From a virus, in the IMG/VR virus record IMGVR_UViG_3300048599_000037, positions 1-38,370 of that record: a stretch of DNA of 38,370 nucleotides; one strand, given 5' to 3'. The stretch's first letter is position 1, and every line of letters starts with the position of its first letter. The notes under the pieces were generated by a model that saw only the letters and a list, made by a program, of their open reading frames with translations, was not told the origin of the DNA and made no database searches. The position numbers were made by a program, and so were the translations under genes. Positions 4,692 to 38,370 of the stretch are shown in pieces.

Positions 4692-5656
4692 TGAGTGGGC
4701 CAGCGCCAATCCAAACGACAACACAACAACCGGGTGGATCATCAAATCAAAACACAGATCCGAAATCAGCCGCATCGCCGGGAGTCGGGAGTCAAGCCCC
4801 TGCCGCCAACGCAGGAACAGCGGGACAAACGAAATCAGAAACAGCGGAAAGGTTCGCAGCCCTTGCAAGACAGGAAAAAAGCAAGCTCGACCTTAAACGT
4901 CGTGCAGAAGAAGAGCTTAACAAAAACAAAGGTCTTTCAGAAAAGCTTTCAGCCTACGAAACTCGTAGAGCCGAAGCTCAAAAAGATCCGTTTAAGTTTA
5001 TCCAAGAAGAGCTTGGTCTTTCTTACGAACAGTTAACAGAAATGCAGTTGAATGGTGGAAAGCCAACAACTGAAATGGAAATAACTCAAAAGCTTTCTAA
5101 GATTGATAAATGGGAAGAAGAGCAAAAGCTTGCTCAGCAAAAGCGTGATGAAGAAGCTAAAACTTATCAAGAGCAGCAACAACAAGCTGAATACGAAAAG
5201 CAAGTTAAAGACTTCAAATCAGCTATTCCAGATCAATTAGCAAAGATTGAAAAACTGGATATGGTGACAGCTCTTTTAGAACCGGAAGAACAATCTGAAG
5301 AAATCTTTAAAATCATCGAAGCTCACTGGGCAACAGAAGAAGAGAAGTTTGAAAAAGATAATTCTTACCAACAGAAGATGATGTCAGTTGAAGAAGCTGC
5401 TGAAGTGTTGGAAGAAATCCTCCAGGAAAAGTTCGTTAAGTATGGATCTAAATCTAAAAAGTTTGGTGACGCAATTAAAAATGCTTTAAGTCCTGCGGCT
5501 CCTAAGGCTACAGAAAAGCCTTCTGGATTCACAGCTTCAAAAGCATCAACAACAACATTAACAAATGAAGCGACGTCTTCAGGTGCGACTTCTTTAGTAA
5601 GTGCCGCAACTGACAATGATCGTATGAAGCGCGCTATGGCCGCATTAGGGAGCTAG
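4691..5656 (+). CDS. Putative scaffolding protein
   Basis: 321 aa with a low-complexity N-terminus and a long acidic E/K/Q coiled-coil core. It lies between the portal and terminase genes. Confidence 0.4.
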   Translation: MSGPAPIQTTTQQPGGSSNQNTDPKSAASPGVGSQAPAANAGTAGQTKSETAERFAALARQEKSKLDLKRRAEEELNKNKGLSEKLSAYETRRAEAQKDPFKFIQEELGLSYEQLTEMQLNGGKPTTEMEITQKLSKIDKWEEEQKLAQQKRDEEAKTYQEQQQQAEYEKQVKDFKSAIPDQLAKIEKLDMVTALLEPEEQSEEIFKIIEAHWATEEEKFEKDNSYQQKMMSVEEAAEVLEEILQEKFVKYGSKSKKFGDAIKNALSPAAPKATEKPSGFTASKASTTTLTNEATSSGATSLVSAATDNDRMKRAMAALGS

Positions 5657-32803: not shown

Positions 32804-33082
32804 CTAGTATAGAGAAGCTGCGAATTGTTCAGCTGTATCAAAAGATTTGTTCATTCCGTTTTCTTCTAAGTAAGATTGCATCATTTCTTCAGCTTCAGCA
32901 TTTACTTTGGTCCAAGCTGCACCAGATAAAGTTAACCAACAAAACCATGAATCAACTGCTGGGATATAAACAGCGCAATCTAAAACTTCATTGCCATGTT
33001 TATCAGATAGGATTGTGATCTCCATAGTTTGCTCTTCGTTTTGTCTTCCTTTTAATTCGTTATTCATTACTTTGATTTTCAT
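32804..33082 (-). CDS. Hypothetical early protein
   Basis: First gene downstream of the promoter-operator cassette at 33127-33190. Confidence 0.55.
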   Translation of the reverse strand: MKIKVMNNELKGRQNEEQTMEITILSDKHGNEVLDCAVYIPAVDSWFCWLTLSGAAWTKVNAEAEEMMQSYLEENGMNKSFDTAEQFAASLY

Positions 33083-33126
33083 CTTTCATCCTTTTGTTTA
33101 GCGTTTCTTAATCCGCTTTGTTAAAT

Positions 33127-33190
33127 ACAGTTCTAATCCAATTGTAATACACCATCAACATATATTTTAATTGTATTACACCGCGTTAAT
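33127..33190 (-). promoter_or_regulatory. Leftward promoter-operator cassette with two TGTA-W-TACA sites
   Basis: Sites at 33143-33151 (tgtaataca) and 33172-33180 (tgtattaca). The minus strand reads AATTAAAATA-TATGTTGAT-GGTGTATTACA-ATTGGATTAGAAC, with possible -35 TTGATG, a 17-nt spacer and TAGAAC. About 27 of 32 positions are shared with 35220-35251. Confidence 0.5.
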
Positions 33191-33661
33191 TTTATGTTTA
33201 ATTCTATCCAAAATCGTCATTATTAAATCAACTTGAGCATCTGTTTTTATTTTACACTTAGACATTTTTCTAAGTAAGTGGTGATATTTGGCGTGTTTTT
33301 TCGCCAAAATAGCAGCTTTATCATATTTTGAAATTTTTTCTTTTATTGAATTAAATTTAGAAATATCAAGATGTTTAACTTCTTGAGGTAATATAGGATT
33401 GAGATTTATTTTACTCATTATTATGTCGTGAGCAGATTTAAAAGAACTTCCCGTCGGTATATATAAACCCCCTTTGCCACGTCCTAGAACTAAACCAGTA
33501 TTTTTATATTCTTTTGCTCTTCTTTTAAGAGATTGCAAACTAAGAGCAGGGTCCATATTGGGCTTATCAATGGACTTCTCTTTATATTTTAAAGAACTGC
33601 AATTTTTGCCTTTTTCAGGTATATGTGCCACCAAAAAGCTTGGAGTTATTCCTTTTTTCAT
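33176..33661 (-). CDS. Hypothetical protein, AT-rich compositional outlier
   Basis: 161 aa, K-rich. A hand count gives about 30% GC over 33181-33660 against about 40% elsewhere. No motif recognised. Confidence 0.55.
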   Translation of the reverse strand: MKKGITPSFLVAHIPEKGKNCSSLKYKEKSIDKPNMDPALSLQSLKRRAKEYKNTGLVLGRGKGGLYIPTGSSFKSAHDIIMSKINLNPILPQEVKHLDISKFNSIKEKISKYDKAAILAKKHAKYHHLLRKMSKCKIKTDAQVDLIMTILDRIKHKINAV

Positions 33662-33960
33662 TTATTTAACCCCATTGGCAAATTTGAATCGACCTGGACT
33701 ATTTTGTCCTCAAAATCTTCTCTGTAGGCTATCATGCTTTCTTCTTTCAAAGCCTTCTTCCTGTAGTACCCGGCAAGACATCTCTCAGCCTGACGCTTTC
33801 TAGAGGCCTCAGCTTGTTCAGCTGTCATCCTTCTAGAATCCCCGTAGCATTGTGGATTGCAGTAGAAGTTTTTATGTCCTCGCTTCTGTGCAGTCTTGTG
33901 ATCGCTCTGTGAAATCTCTTTATCAGCTTTGCAATGAAAGCATTGGACTATTATTTTCAT
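33658..33960 (-). CDS. Zinc-ribbon protein
   Basis: CFHC ... CNPQC gives four Cys in a CxxC...CxxxC arrangement. Basic C-terminal half. Confidence 0.55.
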   Translation of the reverse strand: MKIIVQCFHCKADKEISQSDHKTAQKRGHKNFYCNPQCYGDSRRMTAEQAEASRKRQAERCLAGYYRKKALKEESMIAYREDFEDKIVQVDSNLPMGLNK

Positions 33961-34172
33961 TTTACATCCTCATAAGGCCACTTTGATTTAGGCAGTAAAA
34001 ACTTAAACATATCTATATCGCCTTCGCACTTTTTCAATGCAAACATTACATCATCCAACTTTACTAGCTCCGTGGTATCTTGATCGTCGCAGAGCATAGT
34101 TCCTTTATTGTCAGTGTAAATTTTGTATTGATCTTCAGTTCCATCAACTAAGATTGGTGTCCAGATTTTCAT
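33957..34172 (-). CDS. Hypothetical acidic early protein
   Basis: 4-nt overlaps on both sides. Confidence 0.55.
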   Translation of the reverse strand: MKIWTPILVDGTEDQYKIYTDNKGTMLCDDQDTTELVKLDDVMFALKKCEGDIDMFKFLLPKSKWPYEDVK

Positions 34173-34414
34173 TTATCACCACGGATCTTTTCTAGGGCTT
34201 GGTCTGCAATAGCTGCAAATGAGTTTCTTGTGTATTCTGTTTTTGAAATAGCTTTATTCCCTATTTCGTCCAAAGCTTCTTCAGCGATTTTAAGCTTCTC
34301 GGTTAGCGATTGGATTCGCTCATTCTGCTTAAGATACCCAGCTGAAGATTCTAACTTTCTATTTTTTTCATCAATCTCAGCAATCTTCTTTTTCAATTCT
34401 TCAATAAATGACAT
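34169..34414 (-). CDS. Hypothetical coiled-coil early protein
   Basis: Heptad-like E/K/L composition. Packed in the operon. Confidence 0.55.
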   Translation of the reverse strand: MSFIEELKKKIAEIDEKNRKLESSAGYLKQNERIQSLTEKLKIAEEALDEIGNKAISKTEYTRNSFAAIADQALEKIRGDK

Positions 34415-34415
34415 T

Positions 34416-34598
34416 TTAAAATCCTAACTCCTTAGTGGCAAATGGGACAAAAACAGAAGATAGAATATTTGATGATTTGTCATAACTTCTGTAAATCCAG
34501 CCATGAGGCACTCTCATCACCGTGGTGAATAAACTGCAATCATCTACCACTGTAGTTTCGTGCATCTCTAATTTATAAATATCTTTTTTTGTTAACAT
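34416..34598 (-). CDS. Hypothetical small early protein
   Basis: The motif MRVPHGWIYRS resembles a recurrent small phage-protein motif of unknown function. Confidence 0.5.
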   Translation of the reverse strand: MLTKKDIYKLEMHETTVVDDCSLFTTVMRVPHGWIYRSYDKSSNILSSVFVPFATKELGF

Positions 34599-35086
34599 TA
34601 TTCATTCTCCTTTAAATATCCAATGACAGTAAAGTCAGGGTTTTTGTATGCAACTTTGTATTGGGCTTTAGGAAGTTCAGTATGAATCACTGGCGCAAAG
34701 CCTTTAAAAGTAACTTCCCAGTAGCAAGAAACACCTTCATCAGATAATTCATCAACAATGGCCTGCATTTCTTTGAAACCACACTCTTTGTAATCAGTGA
34801 TGTCACCACCGTCTTGATCTACTTCAAACACATGAGAGTCATCGAATAGTTCTTCTAGAGTGTTACCAGAAGCTTGTAAGTCATAAGATCTCCAAGCTCC
34901 AGCGTCTGCAAATTCTTTATAATCAGAGATTTCTAAGTTGTATTTTTTTTCATGACTACACCAATACCTGAATGAAAGATTTGATTGATTTGTGGAAAGT
35001 GTGTGATTCGCCTTCTTGCCCATTTCTGAAAGTTGAAACACAAACTGCTTTACCTTCTTGAAAGAAGTAAGATCCAGTTTTACCAT
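34598..35086 (-). CDS. Acidic early protein (5' end uncertain)
   Basis: The C-terminal ~113 aa hold about 24 D/E against about 9 K/R by hand count. The N-terminal 44 codons overlap the upstream ORF, and an A8 tract sits at 34943-34950. Confidence 0.5.
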   Translation of the reverse strand: MVKLDLTSFKKVKQFVFQLSEMGKKANHTLSTNQSNLSFRYWCSHEKKYNLEISDYKEFADAGAWRSYDLQASGNTLEELFDDSHVFEVDQDGGDITDYKECGFKEMQAIVDELSDEGVSCYWEVTFKGFAPVIHTELPKAQYKVAYKNPDFTVIGYLKENE

Positions 35087-35183
35087 TTTTACCGATTACA
35101 TAAACTTGGTTAGAACCAGATACAGCCATCATTGTAGGTAGACCGGCTTGAGCAATTTTATTTTCTAAAGACATTGTTTTCAT
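34956..35183 (-). CDS. Hypothetical first early protein
   Basis: I prefer ATG 35183 (MKTMSLENK..., SD AAGGAA) to the track start at 35240, which would run through the operator. Confidence 0.5.
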   Translation of the reverse strand: MKTMSLENKIAQAGLPTMMAVSGSNQVYVIGKNGKTGSYFFQEGKAVCVSTFRNGQEGESHTFHKSIKSFIQVLV

Positions 35184-35199
35184 TTGTTCGATTCCTTTT

Positions 35200-35262
35200 C
35201 TTGAAACCAAACTAACAAAGTGTAATACACCTGACAACAACTATTTTAATTTTATTTATTAT
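35200..35262 (-). promoter_or_regulatory. Leftward early promoter-operator cassette
   Basis: Perfect palindrome GTGTA-A-TACAC at 35220-35230. The minus strand reads AATTAAAATA-GTTGTTGTCA-GGTGTATTACA-CTTTGTTAGTTT, with possible -35 TTGTCA, a 17-nt spacer and TAGTTT. It is a paralogous copy of the cassette at 33127-33190. Confidence 0.5.
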
Positions 35263-35267
35263 TTGTG

Positions 35268-35282
35268 ATGCACTATGTGCAT
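35268..35282. promoter_or_regulatory. 15-bp palindrome ATGCAC-TAT-GTGCAT
   Basis: Read directly. It lies just upstream of the leftward promoter cassette. Confidence 0.5.
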
Positions 35283-35293
35283 AAGTGCACTTA

Positions 35294-35310
35294 ATTGGCT
35301 GTTCATTAAA
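35294..35310. repeat. Direct repeat ATTGGCTGTTCATTAAA (copy 1)
   Basis: Matches 35429-35445 (ATTGGCTGTTTCATAAA). A partial copy, CCGGCTGTTTAAC, lies at 35324-35336. Confidence 0.7.
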
Positions 35311-35370
35311 AAGATTGATAAATCCGGCTGTTTAACTTTTCCCATCGGCTTGCAATTGCGAAGCAATTCA

Positions 35371-35417
35371 AACGAGGTCCAAGCGGTAGCGCGGCAGGGA
35401 TGCAAGACATTCTCGTT
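35371..35417. other. GC-rich stem-loop (aacgag ... ctcgtt closing stem)
   Basis: A 6-bp closing stem encloses gtccaagcggtagcgcggcagggatgcaagacatt. It is locally far more GC-rich than its flanks and sits between the direct repeats. Confidence 0.45.
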
Positions 35418-35428
35418 AATTTAATCAG

Positions 35429-35445
35429 ATTGGCTGTTTCATAAA
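35429..35445. repeat. Direct repeat ATTGGCTGTTTCATAAA (copy 2)
   Basis: See 35294-35310. The copies start 135 bp apart. Confidence 0.7.
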
Positions 35446-35693
35446 CTAGATATAGGAATCCCCTACCTGTAGGGAAAACAGTTTTAAAAAATACTTTTGA
35501 ACCCGCTTACTTCTTAGATTCAGCAAGGTTTATATGTCTAATAAGGTTAGTGGCCTTTCGCTTGGAGCTAATTCCTGTCGCTTTCCAAGTGCTCCGGTCG
35601 GTAGATAAGGGGGAGCCCTGTCAGTTGATCCCAAAACGGGGCACAACTATTTTTTAACGATCCACTAAACTTAATAAACTTTTAAAGAAGTAA

Positions 35694-35722
35694 TTGACCT
35701 GAAACGGTCTATGACATAATAA
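35694..35722 (+). promoter_or_regulatory. Sigma70-like rightward promoter
   Basis: TTGACC at 35694-35699, then CATAAT at 35715-35720 (15-nt spacer) or TAATAA at 35717-35722 (17-nt spacer). Confidence 0.5.
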
Positions 35723-35728
35723 TGAGTC

Positions 35729-35783
35729 TATCAGTAATCATTATTAAATGCTTGGAGATGACCTCTTCAGGCATTTTCTTTAT
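35729..35783 (+). ncRNA. Predicted ~55-nt transcript or leader ending in a 13-bp hairpin and T-run (terminator/attenuator 35746-35783)
   Basis: 35746-35758 pairs with 35764-35776 (13 bp including 2 G.U, loop TGACC), followed by TCTTTAT. It lies about 20 nt downstream of the predicted start site. Confidence 0.45.
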
Positions 35784-35839
35784 CAGTTCAAACATCATCA
35801 CACGACAATCCAAATTTAAGCAATAATCATTTTTTACAG

Positions 35840-35848
35840 TGTAATACA
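35840..35848. promoter_or_regulatory. Operator-like site TGTAATACA (context AGTGTAATACAATTTT)
   Basis: Same core as 33143, 33172 and 35221. Its context matches the minus-strand reading of the 33172 site (GGTGTAATACAATTAAAA). Confidence 0.45.
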
Positions 35849-35870
35849 ATTTTACTGCGCACTTCATTTA

Positions 35871-35948
35871 CCCGCGGTCTGCAAACACTACGAGCAGCCG
35901 GCCGGACCGGTACCATGTCACTAAATAACAGATTTTTGGATCCAAAAA
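35871..35948. other. GC-rich island dense in perfect palindromes
   Basis: CCGCGG 35872-35877, CCGGCCGG 35898-35905, ACCGGT 35906-35911, GGTACC 35909-35914, and the 16-bp TTTTTGGATCCAAAAA at 35933-35948. GAGCTC and CTGCAG follow within the next 25 bp. Confidence 0.8.
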
Positions 35949-35980
35949 GGAAGAGCTCGAATTGCTGCAGCTCTTTTTGC
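35948..35980 (+). terminator. Second hairpin plus T-run in the rightward leader
   Basis: aagagct (35951-35957) pairs with agctctt (35969-35975) and is followed by TTTGCTT. It is weaker than the first hairpin (7 bp, 11-nt loop). Confidence 0.35.
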
Positions 35981-36076
35981 TTATTACCTGGACTTTTCTT
36001 GCAATTACACATATCGTCATAATTACAGATCATTTCATTGATTTAAGTCGGTTAGTTAGCCAAACTTTTATTTGAC

Positions 36077-36406
36077 ATGACAAAATGCCTCAAAACGCTT
36101 CAAAAAGAATGGTACAAAAAAATAGAAGCCCAAGGCTTCACTGACATCGAATACCCCACTGGCCAAGTAAAAAAGTTCCAAGCATCCATCCACAAAATCG
36201 AACATACCCAAAAATACTTCTCAATCGCCCAAGACTTCTTAAATAACTTCACATTCAATTCTGAATTAGATAAACAGATCTGGGCCCTACACTGCGAAGG
36301 CTGGAGCTACCGTCAAACCGCTAAAATCTTAAATATTGGAACTAACAAAACCCAATACCGAATGACTAAACTTAAAACAATCATGGAAATCTGGAGAAAA
36401 CTATAA
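36077..36406 (+). CDS. Sigma-70 region-4 / LuxR-like HTH protein (candidate activator), first gene of the rightward operon
   Basis: DKQIWALHCEGWSYRQTAKILNIGTNKTQYRMTKLKTIM resembles a region-4-type HTH. 109 aa. Confidence 0.55.
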   Translation: MTKCLKTLQKEWYKKIEAQGFTDIEYPTGQVKKFQASIHKIEHTQKYFSIAQDFLNNFTFNSELDKQIWALHCEGWSYRQTAKILNIGTNKTQYRMTKLKTIMEIWRKL

Positions 36407-36846
36407 TGACTAAATTTGAACTGCTATTTTGTATCTTAATATCAACATACGGATTCTTTAGCTTATTGTTTCAATGGCTATCTGCTGACAATAAACAGCA
36501 ACATAATTTCACTCTCATGACCCTATCTGAAAAATCTAATGAATTAAGTAAGATTAAAAGTGTAAGCTATTACAATGCTAAGGCTTATAAACATTCTGAA
36601 GCTGAGGTCAGTAATTTAACTACTCTCCTAAAGCAATTAGAGGCTGACCATAAGGATTTGTTGTCTAAGCATGAGCAATTGGTTTCTTCTTTTAATAGAG
36701 AGGCTGAAGAGCATTATCAGTTGAATGTTAACTACAAGGATTTGTTCAATAAAAACAAAGAGTTTTCGAATGTAAATGAACTTCTAACTAAGAAAGTAAT
36801 CGACCTGGAGTCTATAAGACGGAGCCGTAAAAATGATCCTAATTAG
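36406..36846 (+). CDS. N-terminally anchored coiled-coil membrane protein
   Basis: TM segment LLFCILISTYGFFSLLF followed by a charged coiled-coil. TAATG coupling. Confidence 0.55.
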   Translation: MTKFELLFCILISTYGFFSLLFQWLSADNKQQHNFTLMTLSEKSNELSKIKSVSYYNAKAYKHSEAEVSNLTTLLKQLEADHKDLLSKHEQLVSSFNREAEEHYQLNVNYKDLFNKNKEFSNVNELLTKKVIDLESIRRSRKNDPN

Positions 36847-37261
36847 ACCTTACAAAGAATCTGACCATGACTTCATTTGTTCTTCTTACTTGAAGTCTAC
36901 CTATTACAATTCAGTGGATAAAACCACACGTATGGTTAACCAACTGGACCACGACAAAGCTATGGATCGAAAGATCAATGCGATGCTGGCCCAGTCGATA
37001 ACTTTGGTGGCCTGCCCGGAATCAGATCCAGATGTGATCGTTGGTTACGTCATCTTCACAAACGATTGTTTACATTATATCTATGTTAAGAAAAGCTTTC
37101 GTGGGATGGGAGTCGGCACTGATTTAATCAAGTCATGCACTTTCGAACCGGACGAATCAGGCAGAAGGTATGTGACAGCCAGCCACTTAACGCAGGAAGG
37201 TGTTGCCATGCTTAACAGACTTTTCTTATGGTCATACAACCCTTACAAAGTACTCATTTAA
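36833..37261 (+). CDS. GNAT-family N-acetyltransferase
   Basis: MILIRPYKESD..., then VGYVIF...IYVKKSFRGMGVGTDLI, which matches GNAT motif A (R/Q-x-x-G-x-G/A). Confidence 0.7.
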   Translation: MILIRPYKESDHDFICSSYLKSTYYNSVDKTTRMVNQLDHDKAMDRKINAMLAQSITLVACPESDPDVIVGYVIFTNDCLHYIYVKKSFRGMGVGTDLIKSCTFEPDESGRRYVTASHLTQEGVAMLNRLFLWSYNPYKVLI

Positions 37262-37278
37262 ACGCACATAAATGCAGT

Positions 37279-37298
37279 TTGAATACAGATTAGATACG
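37279..37298 (+). promoter_or_regulatory. Conserved box TTGAATACAGATTAGATACG (second copy of the 16852 box)
   Basis: 37282-37297 (AATACAGATTAGATAC) matches 16852-16867 (AATACAGCTTAGATAC) at 15 of 16 positions. It lies 17 nt upstream of ATG 37314, which has no obvious SD. Confidence 0.5.
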
Positions 37299-37313
37299 TT
37301 TTGACATAGATAT

Positions 37314-37691
37314 ATGGCAAAAAAATCTACGCCTGTTAAGGCTGATAAGAAGCGTACAAGACCTAAGAAAACTGAATTTGAGAAATCACTAGAGCGTGTC
37401 ATTAAAATTGGCAAAGCTTCTGGTGTTCATGCTATTCAAACCACTGAATTTAAAATCTATTTTACGCCGGGTTCTGTTGTGACTACTCCCCAGCAGACGA
37501 CATCGACTAAGGGCCCGGCTCCCCTTACTGGCCAACCTTTAGAAAAACACAAAGTAACTGCCGGCGGAATCATGATCGATGGTGATGTCCCAAAAGAAGA
37601 AATCTTATCAGATGATGAATTCTTGTTTATGTCTACTCCATTCTTTCAACGTGAAAAGCCTTTAATGAATGGCGATGGGGAAAATCAATAA
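37314..37691 (+). CDS. Hypothetical protein with a basic N-terminus
   Basis: MAKKSTPVKADKKRTRPKK... No SD seen. Function unknown. Confidence 0.5.
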   Translation: MAKKSTPVKADKKRTRPKKTEFEKSLERVIKIGKASGVHAIQTTEFKIYFTPGSVVTTPQQTTSTKGPAPLTGQPLEKHKVTAGGIMIDGDVPKEEILSDDEFLFMSTPFFQREKPLMNGDGENQ

Positions 37692-37978
37692 TGCAGAAGT
37701 ATGTCGAACAACAGTTAACAGAGAAGATCTGGGAAACTCAGAATAAATACGTTGAGCTTTCTGAAAAGTACGTTTCTGTATTAACTGAAAATATCAAACT
37801 CAAAGAAGAACTTAATCACTATAAACAAAATACAATTCACATCGTCACAGAAAACGGAATCGGAACTGTCACGGCTGATGAATTGGCTCAAGTGAAAAAT
37901 AGATCAACTTGCTTTGGCGGTCACACCTTTAACAATCAAGATAAATGCCTTTATTGTCCTGCAACAAGGCAAACATAA
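37691..37978 (+). CDS. Hypothetical protein (coiled-coil N-terminus, C-terminal Cys cluster)
   Basis: TAATG coupling. C-terminal CFGGH...CLYC. Confidence 0.55.
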   Translation: MQKYVEQQLTEKIWETQNKYVELSEKYVSVLTENIKLKEELNHYKQNTIHIVTENGIGTVTADELAQVKNRSTCFGGHTFNNQDKCLYCPATRQT

Positions 37979-38001
37979 CACCATTAGAAAAGGATTTTTA
38001 A

Positions 38002-38370
38002 ATGGATATAAATACTATGTCTCACAACGGGAAACCTCCTGAAAAGAAACAGTCAGAAAACAAATCTCGTCGTTGGTGGTTAGAGCCAAACAACAAAATC
38101 GCTGACGCTGTTATCTCAAACTTTAATATTATCTATCAAAATGATTCTGCCAGAAGATATCAATATGAAATCTCCTCACGCCTTTACGCTAATATCAATA
38201 TCGTAGGCGCTCCCACTCAAGTCGTAACCAATCAAAAGAAAACAATTAACGACCGATTAACTTACAATTTAGTTCAATCAGTAGTTGATACTTTGATGTC
38301 TAAGTCTGCGAAGAACAGACCAAAAGCAATGTTTCTAACTGAAGGTGGGGTATTCAAACAACAGCGCAAA
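38002..38370 (+). CDS. Portal protein, N-terminal part (continues at base 128 of the window through the repeat)
   Basis: ATG 38002 preceded by AAAAGGA. The frame stays open to the window end and is in frame with 50..1648. Confidence 0.7.
   Translation, partial: MDINTMSHNGKPPEKKQSENKSRRWWLEPNNKIADAVISNFNIIYQNDSARRYQYEISSRLYANINIVGAPTQVVTNQKKTINDRLTYNLVQSVVDTLMSKSAKNRPKAMFLTEGGVFKQQRK
38244..38370. repeat. Terminal direct repeat, copy 2 (identical to 1..127)
   Basis: See 1..127. Confidence 0.95.

Follow-up and report, generated by a model that had tools for sequence, protein, structure and literature searches.

A conserved promoter–terminator unit in the control region of an uncultivated podovirus clade, a candidate small-RNA gene

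The stretch of DNA analysed here (the window, 38,370 nt in full) is a complete circular phage contig. It carries the same 127 bp at positions 1–127 and 38244–38370, a terminal overlap that marks it as a circular assembly, and the circle measures 38,243 bp. The contig junction falls within the 629-aa portal ORF, which is why ORF lists made from the linear window truncate the portal. The genome encodes a P22/SU10-type portal, an SU10-type adaptor, the large terminase, a RecT protein, an HNH endonuclease and a GerE-type regulator. Matching of its genes against Pfam and PHROGs revealed no RNA or DNA polymerase gene, and Shine–Dalgarno sequences are present at most genes; it follows that the phage most likely relies on the RNA polymerase of its host and can reasonably be expected to use promoters of the sigma-70 type. 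A search for tRNA and tmRNA genes returned none. DNA and portal-protein searches gave no match among 50,697 GenBank phages, and no cultured relative is present in INPHARED, whereas a search with the full portal protein retrieved a large family of metagenomic contigs of 35–40 kb. Portal relatives in GTDB genomes fall in metagenome bins of many phyla. The sequences used for comparison, designated below by locus number (L002, L003 and so on), are the closest portal relatives, which share 55–66% portal identity and belong to the same uncultivated podovirus clade.

The control region of the genome is an 840-bp non-coding stretch, 35240–36077. To its left lies a leftward block of small genes, and to its right a rightward operon whose first gene encodes a 109-aa protein and which extends to the portal and terminase genes. 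Within this stretch a compact unit combines promoter-like elements, two dyads and a terminator-like hairpin. Its components, together with two features found further downstream, are the following:

35684–35693, + strand: A-rich tract AAAGAAGTAA, of the TAAAAAG type, abutting the −35 hexamer on its upstream side and found at the same place in 7/7 lineages
35694–35699, + strand: −35 hexamer TTGACC, invariant in four lineages; TTGACA in L002, TTGCCA in L152 and L153
35696–35709, no strand: dyad P0, GACC-N6-GGTC, overlapping the −35 hexamer and the spacer
35715–35723, + strand: −10 region, CATAAT / TAATAA / AATAAT
35717–35746, no strand: dyad P1 (inverted repeat I14), arms TAATAATGA (35717–35725) and TCATTATTA (35738–35746)
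35729–35733, + strand: TATCA, a conserved YATC(A/T) motif; ATCA is invariant in the five-lineage alignment, and L152 and L153 have CATCT
35730–35783, + strand: predicted RNA of ~54 nt (~16 unpaired nt, hairpin, U-tail), derived from the promoter geometry and the terminator
35746–35776, + strand: hairpin P2, the stem of a putative intrinsic terminator; 35746–35758 pairs with 35764–35776 (13 bp, two G·U pairs, loop TGACC)
35774–35783, + strand: U-rich tract TTTTCTTTAT, after the P2 stem
35948–35980, + strand: second hairpin with a T-run, not supported as a structure (z −0.38, no equivalent fold in L003 or L047)
35989–36017, + strand: promoter-like block of the 109-aa gene, TGGACT-17 bp-TATCGT, ~60 nt upstream of the gene

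The −35 hexamer can be paired with three overlapping −10 candidates: CATAAT (35715–35720), at a 15-bp spacer and with TG at 35712–13; TAATAA (35717–35722), at 17 bp; and AATAAT (35718–35723), at 18 bp. The corresponding hexamers of the relatives conform to xAxxxT, being TAAGTT in L003, L047 and L050, TAGAGT in L002, and AATCAT with TG in L152 and L153, and direct reading of the sequences places xAxxxT 17–18 bp from the −35 hexamer in 7/7 lineages. The arrangement by which a sigma-70-type promoter is recognised, hexamers 16–18 bp apart with A at −11 and T at −7, is thus present in all seven. A consensus scan gave the window site a score of 10/12, under sigma-70 rules that are assumed and may not fit the host; this score ties for best within 33000–38370 and is shared by four sites genome-wide. 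Promoter-like sites as a class are rarer than in shuffles, so that the motif by itself proves nothing. The A-tract resembles an UP element, as judged from the established proximal UP subsite of promoters, and the sequence 5′ of it is not conserved among the relatives, a loss of conservation that has the look of a promoter boundary. Transcription is predicted to start at A35730, on the strength of the conserved YATC motif 7 nt past the −10.

Hairpin P2 follows shortly after this predicted start. It has a minimum free energy of −15.1 kcal/mol, against −7.9 ± 2.4 for shuffled sequences (z −2.97; 1 of 200 shuffles as good), and it is the longest terminator-like stem genome-wide. Only 4 of its 13 pairs are G-C in the window, and the tail that follows, TCTTTAT, is an interrupted U-tract with 5 T in 8. 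The equivalent hairpins of the relatives range from −10 to −19 kcal/mol and are followed by 7–8 unbroken T in L003, L047 and L050, by TTTTTCTTTTT in L002, and by TTTTCTTTTTT in L152 and L153. Two sequence features by which an intrinsic terminator is recognised, a stable and usually G+C-rich stem-loop on the transcribed strand and a U-tract right after the stem, are both present. Terminator-like sites as a class are no commoner than in shuffles. In the unpaired 5′ part of the predicted RNA the sequence is not conserved apart from the start motif.

The unit was found in six other lineages of the clade, which makes seven lineages with five sequence-distinct versions: the window; L003 and L004; L047; L050, with a partial copy in L055; L002, on the opposite strand; L152; and L153. 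The L002 unit was detected with a covariance model built from four control regions (E 8e-5), whereas those of L152 and L153 were recognised by eye, the latter additionally by a weak model hit. The order of elements is constant in 7/7: A-tract, −35, 17–18 bp, −10, ~7 nt, YATC(A/T), hairpin and U-tract. The P2 stem sequences diverge and yet stay paired, as in AAATGCTTGGAGA, AAAGGGTCAGTGG, AACCCTC and GCCCCG. In the five-sequence model alignment, which was fitted to the structure and in which L002 was placed with low posterior confidence, 95.2% of the paired cells can pair, compared with 72.8% in shuffles, and 18 of the 25 pairs are changed on both sides, compared with 5.6 in shuffles, a number reached by none of 500. 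Pairing falls to 26–52% when the partners are slid as a control. Both-sided changes affect 10 of the 12 P2 pairs across the five lineages, and RNAalifold, run on the same five-lineage alignment, returns the same three helices, P0, P1 and P2. The U·G at pair 74–93 and the G·U at pair 77–90 are kept in four of the five lineages, L002 having A-U and C-G. On the opposite strand these G·U pairs would be C·A mismatches, which argues that the structure is selected on the + strand.

It is scarcely credible that an AT-rich intergenic region has acquired a promoter-like motif and a hairpin by chance. Neither class of site is commoner than in shuffles, as chance would have it; against this, the geometry is kept with compensatory changes in seven lineages. 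A generic search through ~1 Mb of family loci for promoters with a terminator behind them was uninformative, with 29 units found and 23 in the reversed controls. The conserved geometry, the covariation and the textbook U-tracts of 7–8 residues in the relatives lead us to judge the promoter and the intrinsic terminator real, a supported reading in which a sigma-type promoter firing into an intrinsic terminator should yield an RNA of ~55 nt. That termination occurs there, and that this RNA is the functional product, we infer. An earlier note on this DNA, made from the window alone, had picked out TTGACC with CATAAT/TAATAA as the best sigma-70-type promoter of the control region, had described P2 with its loop and tail, and had proposed a ~55-nt RNA. 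The promoter and hairpin positions are exact, the score is tied for best in 33000–38370, the free-energy calculation that the note suggested sets P2 apart from shuffles, the hairpin is kept in relatives with compensatory changes, and the RNA, as a prediction, gains support from conservation and covariation. The second hairpin of the note, at 35948–35980, fared differently: it can be drawn in the window, but only its T-run is kept in the relatives.

No reading frame is conserved across the unit in the relatives compared, the length of the T-run differing between them. A small peptide or type I toxin was considered and rejected: the 34-aa ORF 35722–35826 has no start codon in L003, and its frame shifts with the T-run length in L047 and L050. 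The 31-mer of the hairpin has no match in IMG/VR, and Rfam 15 has none in the window at the gathering threshold, an E-value threshold giving nothing usable.

Dyads P0 and P1 are superimposed on the promoter. The P0 pattern has its sole match in the genome at this site, with 0.13 expected, and in relatives its arms are kept while the inner bases vary; L002 has TGACA-N8-TGTCA, and L152 and L153 have CCAT-N12-ATGG. P1 occurs in 7/7 lineages, among which its arms have five different sequences (z −2.3 to −5.9), and 7 of its 9 pairs are changed on both sides in the five-lineage alignment. Its 5′ arm is the −10 and its 3′ arm spans +9 to +17, with the predicted start in the loop. This arrangement, common to all the lineages, makes the unpaired 5′ tail (+9 to +17) of the RNA complementary to the non-template strand of its own −10/discriminator region, and the tail may pair with this −10 sequence. 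P0 and P1 are real dyads. Lying as they do over the −35, the −10 and the start, they cannot be part of the short RNA. Given that they covary, the account above either lacks a longer RNA or overlooks a role at the DNA level. P0 combined with the A-tract was also examined as a leftward terminator; a gap of 5–7 nt between its stem and T-run makes it non-canonical.

The dyads may act at the DNA level. In the fullest form of this explanation, which we regard as distinctly unlikely, P0 and P1 would be operators bound by phage regulators or supercoil-sensitive cruciforms, transcription would serve to activate a nearby origin or open the DNA, and the RNA would have no role. The overlap of both dyads with the −35, the −10 and the start is what such a function would look like, as is the distance of 19–21 bp, about two helical turns, between the centres of the P1 arms. 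The unit moreover lies between divergent operons and beside other conserved non-coding elements, and the phage encodes two helix-turn-helix proteins. The half-sites and their spacings (6, 8 or 12 bp in P0) are nevertheless more variable than is usual for one protein family, the G·U pairs of P2 and the canonical U-tract argue for a terminator at the RNA level, and neither origin features nor a replication initiator were identified.

P0 and P1 may alternatively be hairpins of a longer read-through RNA that shares its 3′ end with the short one. Directly upstream of the unit lies a conserved non-coding element of ~330 nt (35330–35660), which has counterparts in L003 (3909–4200), L152 (1470–1810), L153 (1840–2200) and L043 (1030–1400), and its 3′ end in L050 (1–45). 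Its core (35379–35394) is the invariant 16-nt CCAAGCGGTAGCGCGG, which begins GCAAGCGG in L152 and is replaced in L153 by a small hairpin, GGAC-GAA-GTCC. It also contains a UUGC-loop-GCAA hairpin with four different loops and ends 3′ in TTTTTTAACG. To judge from this pattern the element looks like a structured RNA; it has no Rfam match. The 16-mer gave 42 matches in IMG/VR, and those other than L043, lacking any further similarity, are probably due to chance.

An RNA transcribed rightward through this element, with P0, P1 and P2 as its last hairpins and P2 as its terminator, would account for the covariation of all three dyads, which is of the kind seen in RNA helices; the internal promoter would then add a short 3′-derived RNA or be incidental. 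Folded as one RNA, the 108-nt region yields all three dyads in five lineages. In the window, L003, L050, L152 and L153 the element immediately precedes the unit on the same side, and its hairpins are swapped, as in the four loops noted above. We consider this explanation rather unlikely: L047 has the unit without the element, no similarity to the element was found beside the inverted unit of L002, the comparison yielded no conserved promoter from which such an RNA could start, and RNAalifold returned no convincing consensus for the element. Nor would RNA structure explain why a −35 TTG and an xAxxxT are maintained 17–18 bp apart through five versions.

The genes facing the unit bear on whether it serves as a leader. 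It points at the operon of the 109-aa protein, the portal and the large terminase in 5/7 lineages. The 109-aa gene has its own promoter-like block, which scores 8/12 in the window, below the scan cut-off, and 7–9/12 across lineages. Homologous blocks occur at the same place and spacing (alignment A10) in L047 (TGGACT/TAGCGT), L050 (TTTACA/TAGCAT), L003 (TTGCAT/TATAGT) and L002 (TTGATA/TAGCAT), in the last of which no unit precedes the gene. The whole of 35989–36076 is conserved, the hexamers being followed by GTCATAATTACAGATCATTTCATTGA and GTTAGTTAG, and the gene has no Shine–Dalgarno sequence. Homologues of its product (36077–36406) are confined to this small clade, with four clusters in the protein-database search and L002 by BLASTP. 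In IMG/VR one relative was found, only with a four-sequence alignment as query, and the relatives that a scan of metagenomes turned up were all distant (32%) and had an ordinary promoter. A structure model of the protein (pLDDT 81) has a weak likeness to sigma region 4 and LuxR-type helix-turn-helix domains (best E 0.08), not to Q. A second small regulator, of GerE type, is encoded after the portal gene (1648–2007) and is common to L001–L004, L047, L048 and L050; no GerE hit occurs at the corresponding position in L152 and L153. In L002 a gene of 215 aa (4759–5406) with a weak DUF559 (endonuclease-like) match lies between the control region and the 109-aa homologue, and it may have arrived as a mobile insertion connected with the rearrangement of the unit.

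Control of read-through into this operon is the main rival to a small-RNA gene, and in our estimate it is unlikely. The promoter would then be the main late promoter, P2 would stop almost all transcripts, and a phage factor, which could bind the dyad between −35 and −10 or P1, would make the polymerase resistant to the terminator, after the logic of PR′-tR′ and Q and without a Q homologue. The orientation in 5/7 lineages fits such a gate, as do the conserved dyad between −35 and −10, the strength of the terminators in relatives (−16 to −19 kcal/mol, 7–8 U), the weakness of the gene-proximal promoter-like block, and the two small helix-turn-helix proteins that the phage encodes. What speaks against it comes mainly from the relatives. 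The unit is inverted in L002, where it faces the early-left operon, and in L153 it is followed by two convergent leftward genes, which departs from the fixed arrangement of a Q module, in which the terminator separates the promoter from the genes under its control; the 109-aa gene retains its block even where no unit precedes it; and the second terminator is not conserved. Pfam and PHROGs gave no Q- or N-family match among the ORFs flanking the region and the larger genes tested, as the earlier note had observed of the window, and the alignments contain no −10-like pause element (TAnnnT) at a conserved position on the non-template strand between +1 and +20. The comparison of this locus to a PR′-tR′ (Q) or put leader, drawn in that note, is weakened by these observations; of the three roles it offered, antitermination leader, RNA acting on its own, and trans-acting or antisense regulator, the first has lost ground and a stand-alone small RNA fits best.

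We thus favour, with about even confidence, a self-contained small-RNA gene of ~55 nt in the control region of a podovirus that uses the host RNA polymerase; the unit is probably not a gate on the rightward portal/terminase operon, and read-through may make some contribution to the 109-aa, portal and terminase genes. The argument is that the internal anatomy is kept while neighbours and orientation change, in L002 and L153 as described and in L047, where the large upstream element is missing, so that the unit behaves as an independent gene. Transcription would start at about A35730 from the sigma-70-type promoter (A-tract, TTGACC, 17–18 bp, −10), the RNA would fold the 13-bp hairpin 35746–35776 after ~16 unpaired nt, and the U-tract behind it would end transcription, releasing the RNA of ~55 nt. 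A search for trans targets near the start codons of the phage gave no shared or outstanding match. Pairing of the P2 3′ arm with codons 2–5 of the 109-aa gene (repeat I5) was discarded, as it is not conserved and does not exceed shuffles in a single one of the five lineages tested. A leftward promoter convergent on the unit was likewise dropped, as it is plausible in L002 and L003 only and not conserved.

The nearest known counterparts of the candidate small-RNA gene, by architecture and location, are lambda OOP, P22 sar and similar short regulatory RNAs of phages, and it is best filed beside them as a new family. OOP and sar are short phage RNAs, each with its own promoter and intrinsic terminator, that are antisense to a defined mRNA. 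The predicted RNA shares with them a size of roughly 55–80 nt, its own sigma-70 promoter, a terminator hairpin with a U-tail, and a location among divergent regulatory promoters. It differs in having neither a conserved promoter on the opposite strand nor a conserved overlapping gene, in an unpaired 5′ part complementary to its own −10 region, and in showing no similarity to them in sequence or in Rfam. Like lambda PR′-tR′ (6S, Q), the unit has a strong promoter and a promoter-proximal terminator upstream of morphogenesis genes (in 5/7 lineages), and a dyad between −35 and −10, where the lambda Q-binding element lies; unlike it, the unit has no Q homologue, an RNA of ~55 nt rather than 194 nt, a downstream gene with its own promoter-like block, and an inverted position or convergent genes in two relatives. 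The HK022 put RNA similarly has adjacent stem-loops near a promoter with compensatory changes. Both put stems, however, are transcribed, suppress termination and are not terminators, whereas this unit has a canonical terminator as its second stem and, in P1, a first stem whose 5′ arm is the −10 and lies upstream of the predicted start, so that the pair of transcribed non-terminator stems typical of put is absent. FsrA (RF02273), with a hairpin, spacer and terminator hairpin of similar shape, is the best sub-threshold Rfam match over the unit (35693–35776); with 17 bits against a gathering score of 80 and E 1.1, the unit is not a member. Regulation in uncultivated environmental phages is almost unknown, and the comparison of seven lineages, on which alone this non-coding unit with its three helices rests, offers a concrete target for RNA work in a phage clade that has no cultured INPHARED member.

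If P0 and P1 act on the promoter, the control mechanism would be an unusual one. The unit might regulate itself, with the RNA or the displaced DNA strand feeding back on its own promoter, or it could be a new kind of gate, in which a phage factor unrelated to Q or N reads the dyads, loads onto RNA polymerase and passes the terminator. In either form the locus would be a possibly not-yet-described, dedicated non-coding control locus, an idea to which we give little weight and which draws on the dyads together with an adjacent cluster of restriction-type palindromes otherwise purged from the genome. With two further conserved non-coding features beside the unit, the 840-bp stretch is a dense regulatory locus and not a mere gap between operons.

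An 11-bp palindrome, GTGTAATACAC or GTGTATTACAC, recurs in the gaps of the leftward early region, at 33142–33152, 35220–35230 and 35839–35849 in the window, and one of these copies lies 55 nt past the terminator of the unit. In relatives it occurs in L003 (599, 3574 and 3849), L047 (704 and 3260), L002 (4192) and L152 (~1427). The L152 copy sits immediately beside the −35 of a leftward promoter that scores 11/12 (TTGAAA, 18 bp, TATAAT), and the palindrome probably serves the early promoters as an operator or activator site.

The cluster of palindromes resembles a natural polylinker. Located just downstream of the unit, at 35856–35970, it gathers within ~100 bp 7 of the 15 palindromic hexamers that are single-copy in the genome (CCGCGG, CGGCCG, ACCGGT, GGTACC, GGATCC, GAGCTC and CTGCAG). 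GCCGGC and TGCGCA lie there too, and an eighth single-copy hexamer, GTGCAC, occurs at 35285. The literature searched for clusters of restriction sites in phages offered nothing relevant. The cluster is present at the homologous place and partly reordered in L050 (235–350), L003 (4401–4439) and L047 (4516), where the sites are single-copy within the 7–16 kb examined per locus; L047 keeps GGATCC only, and L002 has none of the sites. The genome avoids 6-bp palindromes about two-fold and does not avoid 4-bp palindromes. Over the whole window, sigma-70-like promoter motifs are about half as frequent as in shuffles (23 against 45, and 27 against 52), and two palindromes are over-represented while most others of 6 bp are depleted, CAGCTG occurring 31 times with 5 expected and AAGCTT 40 times with 13 expected.
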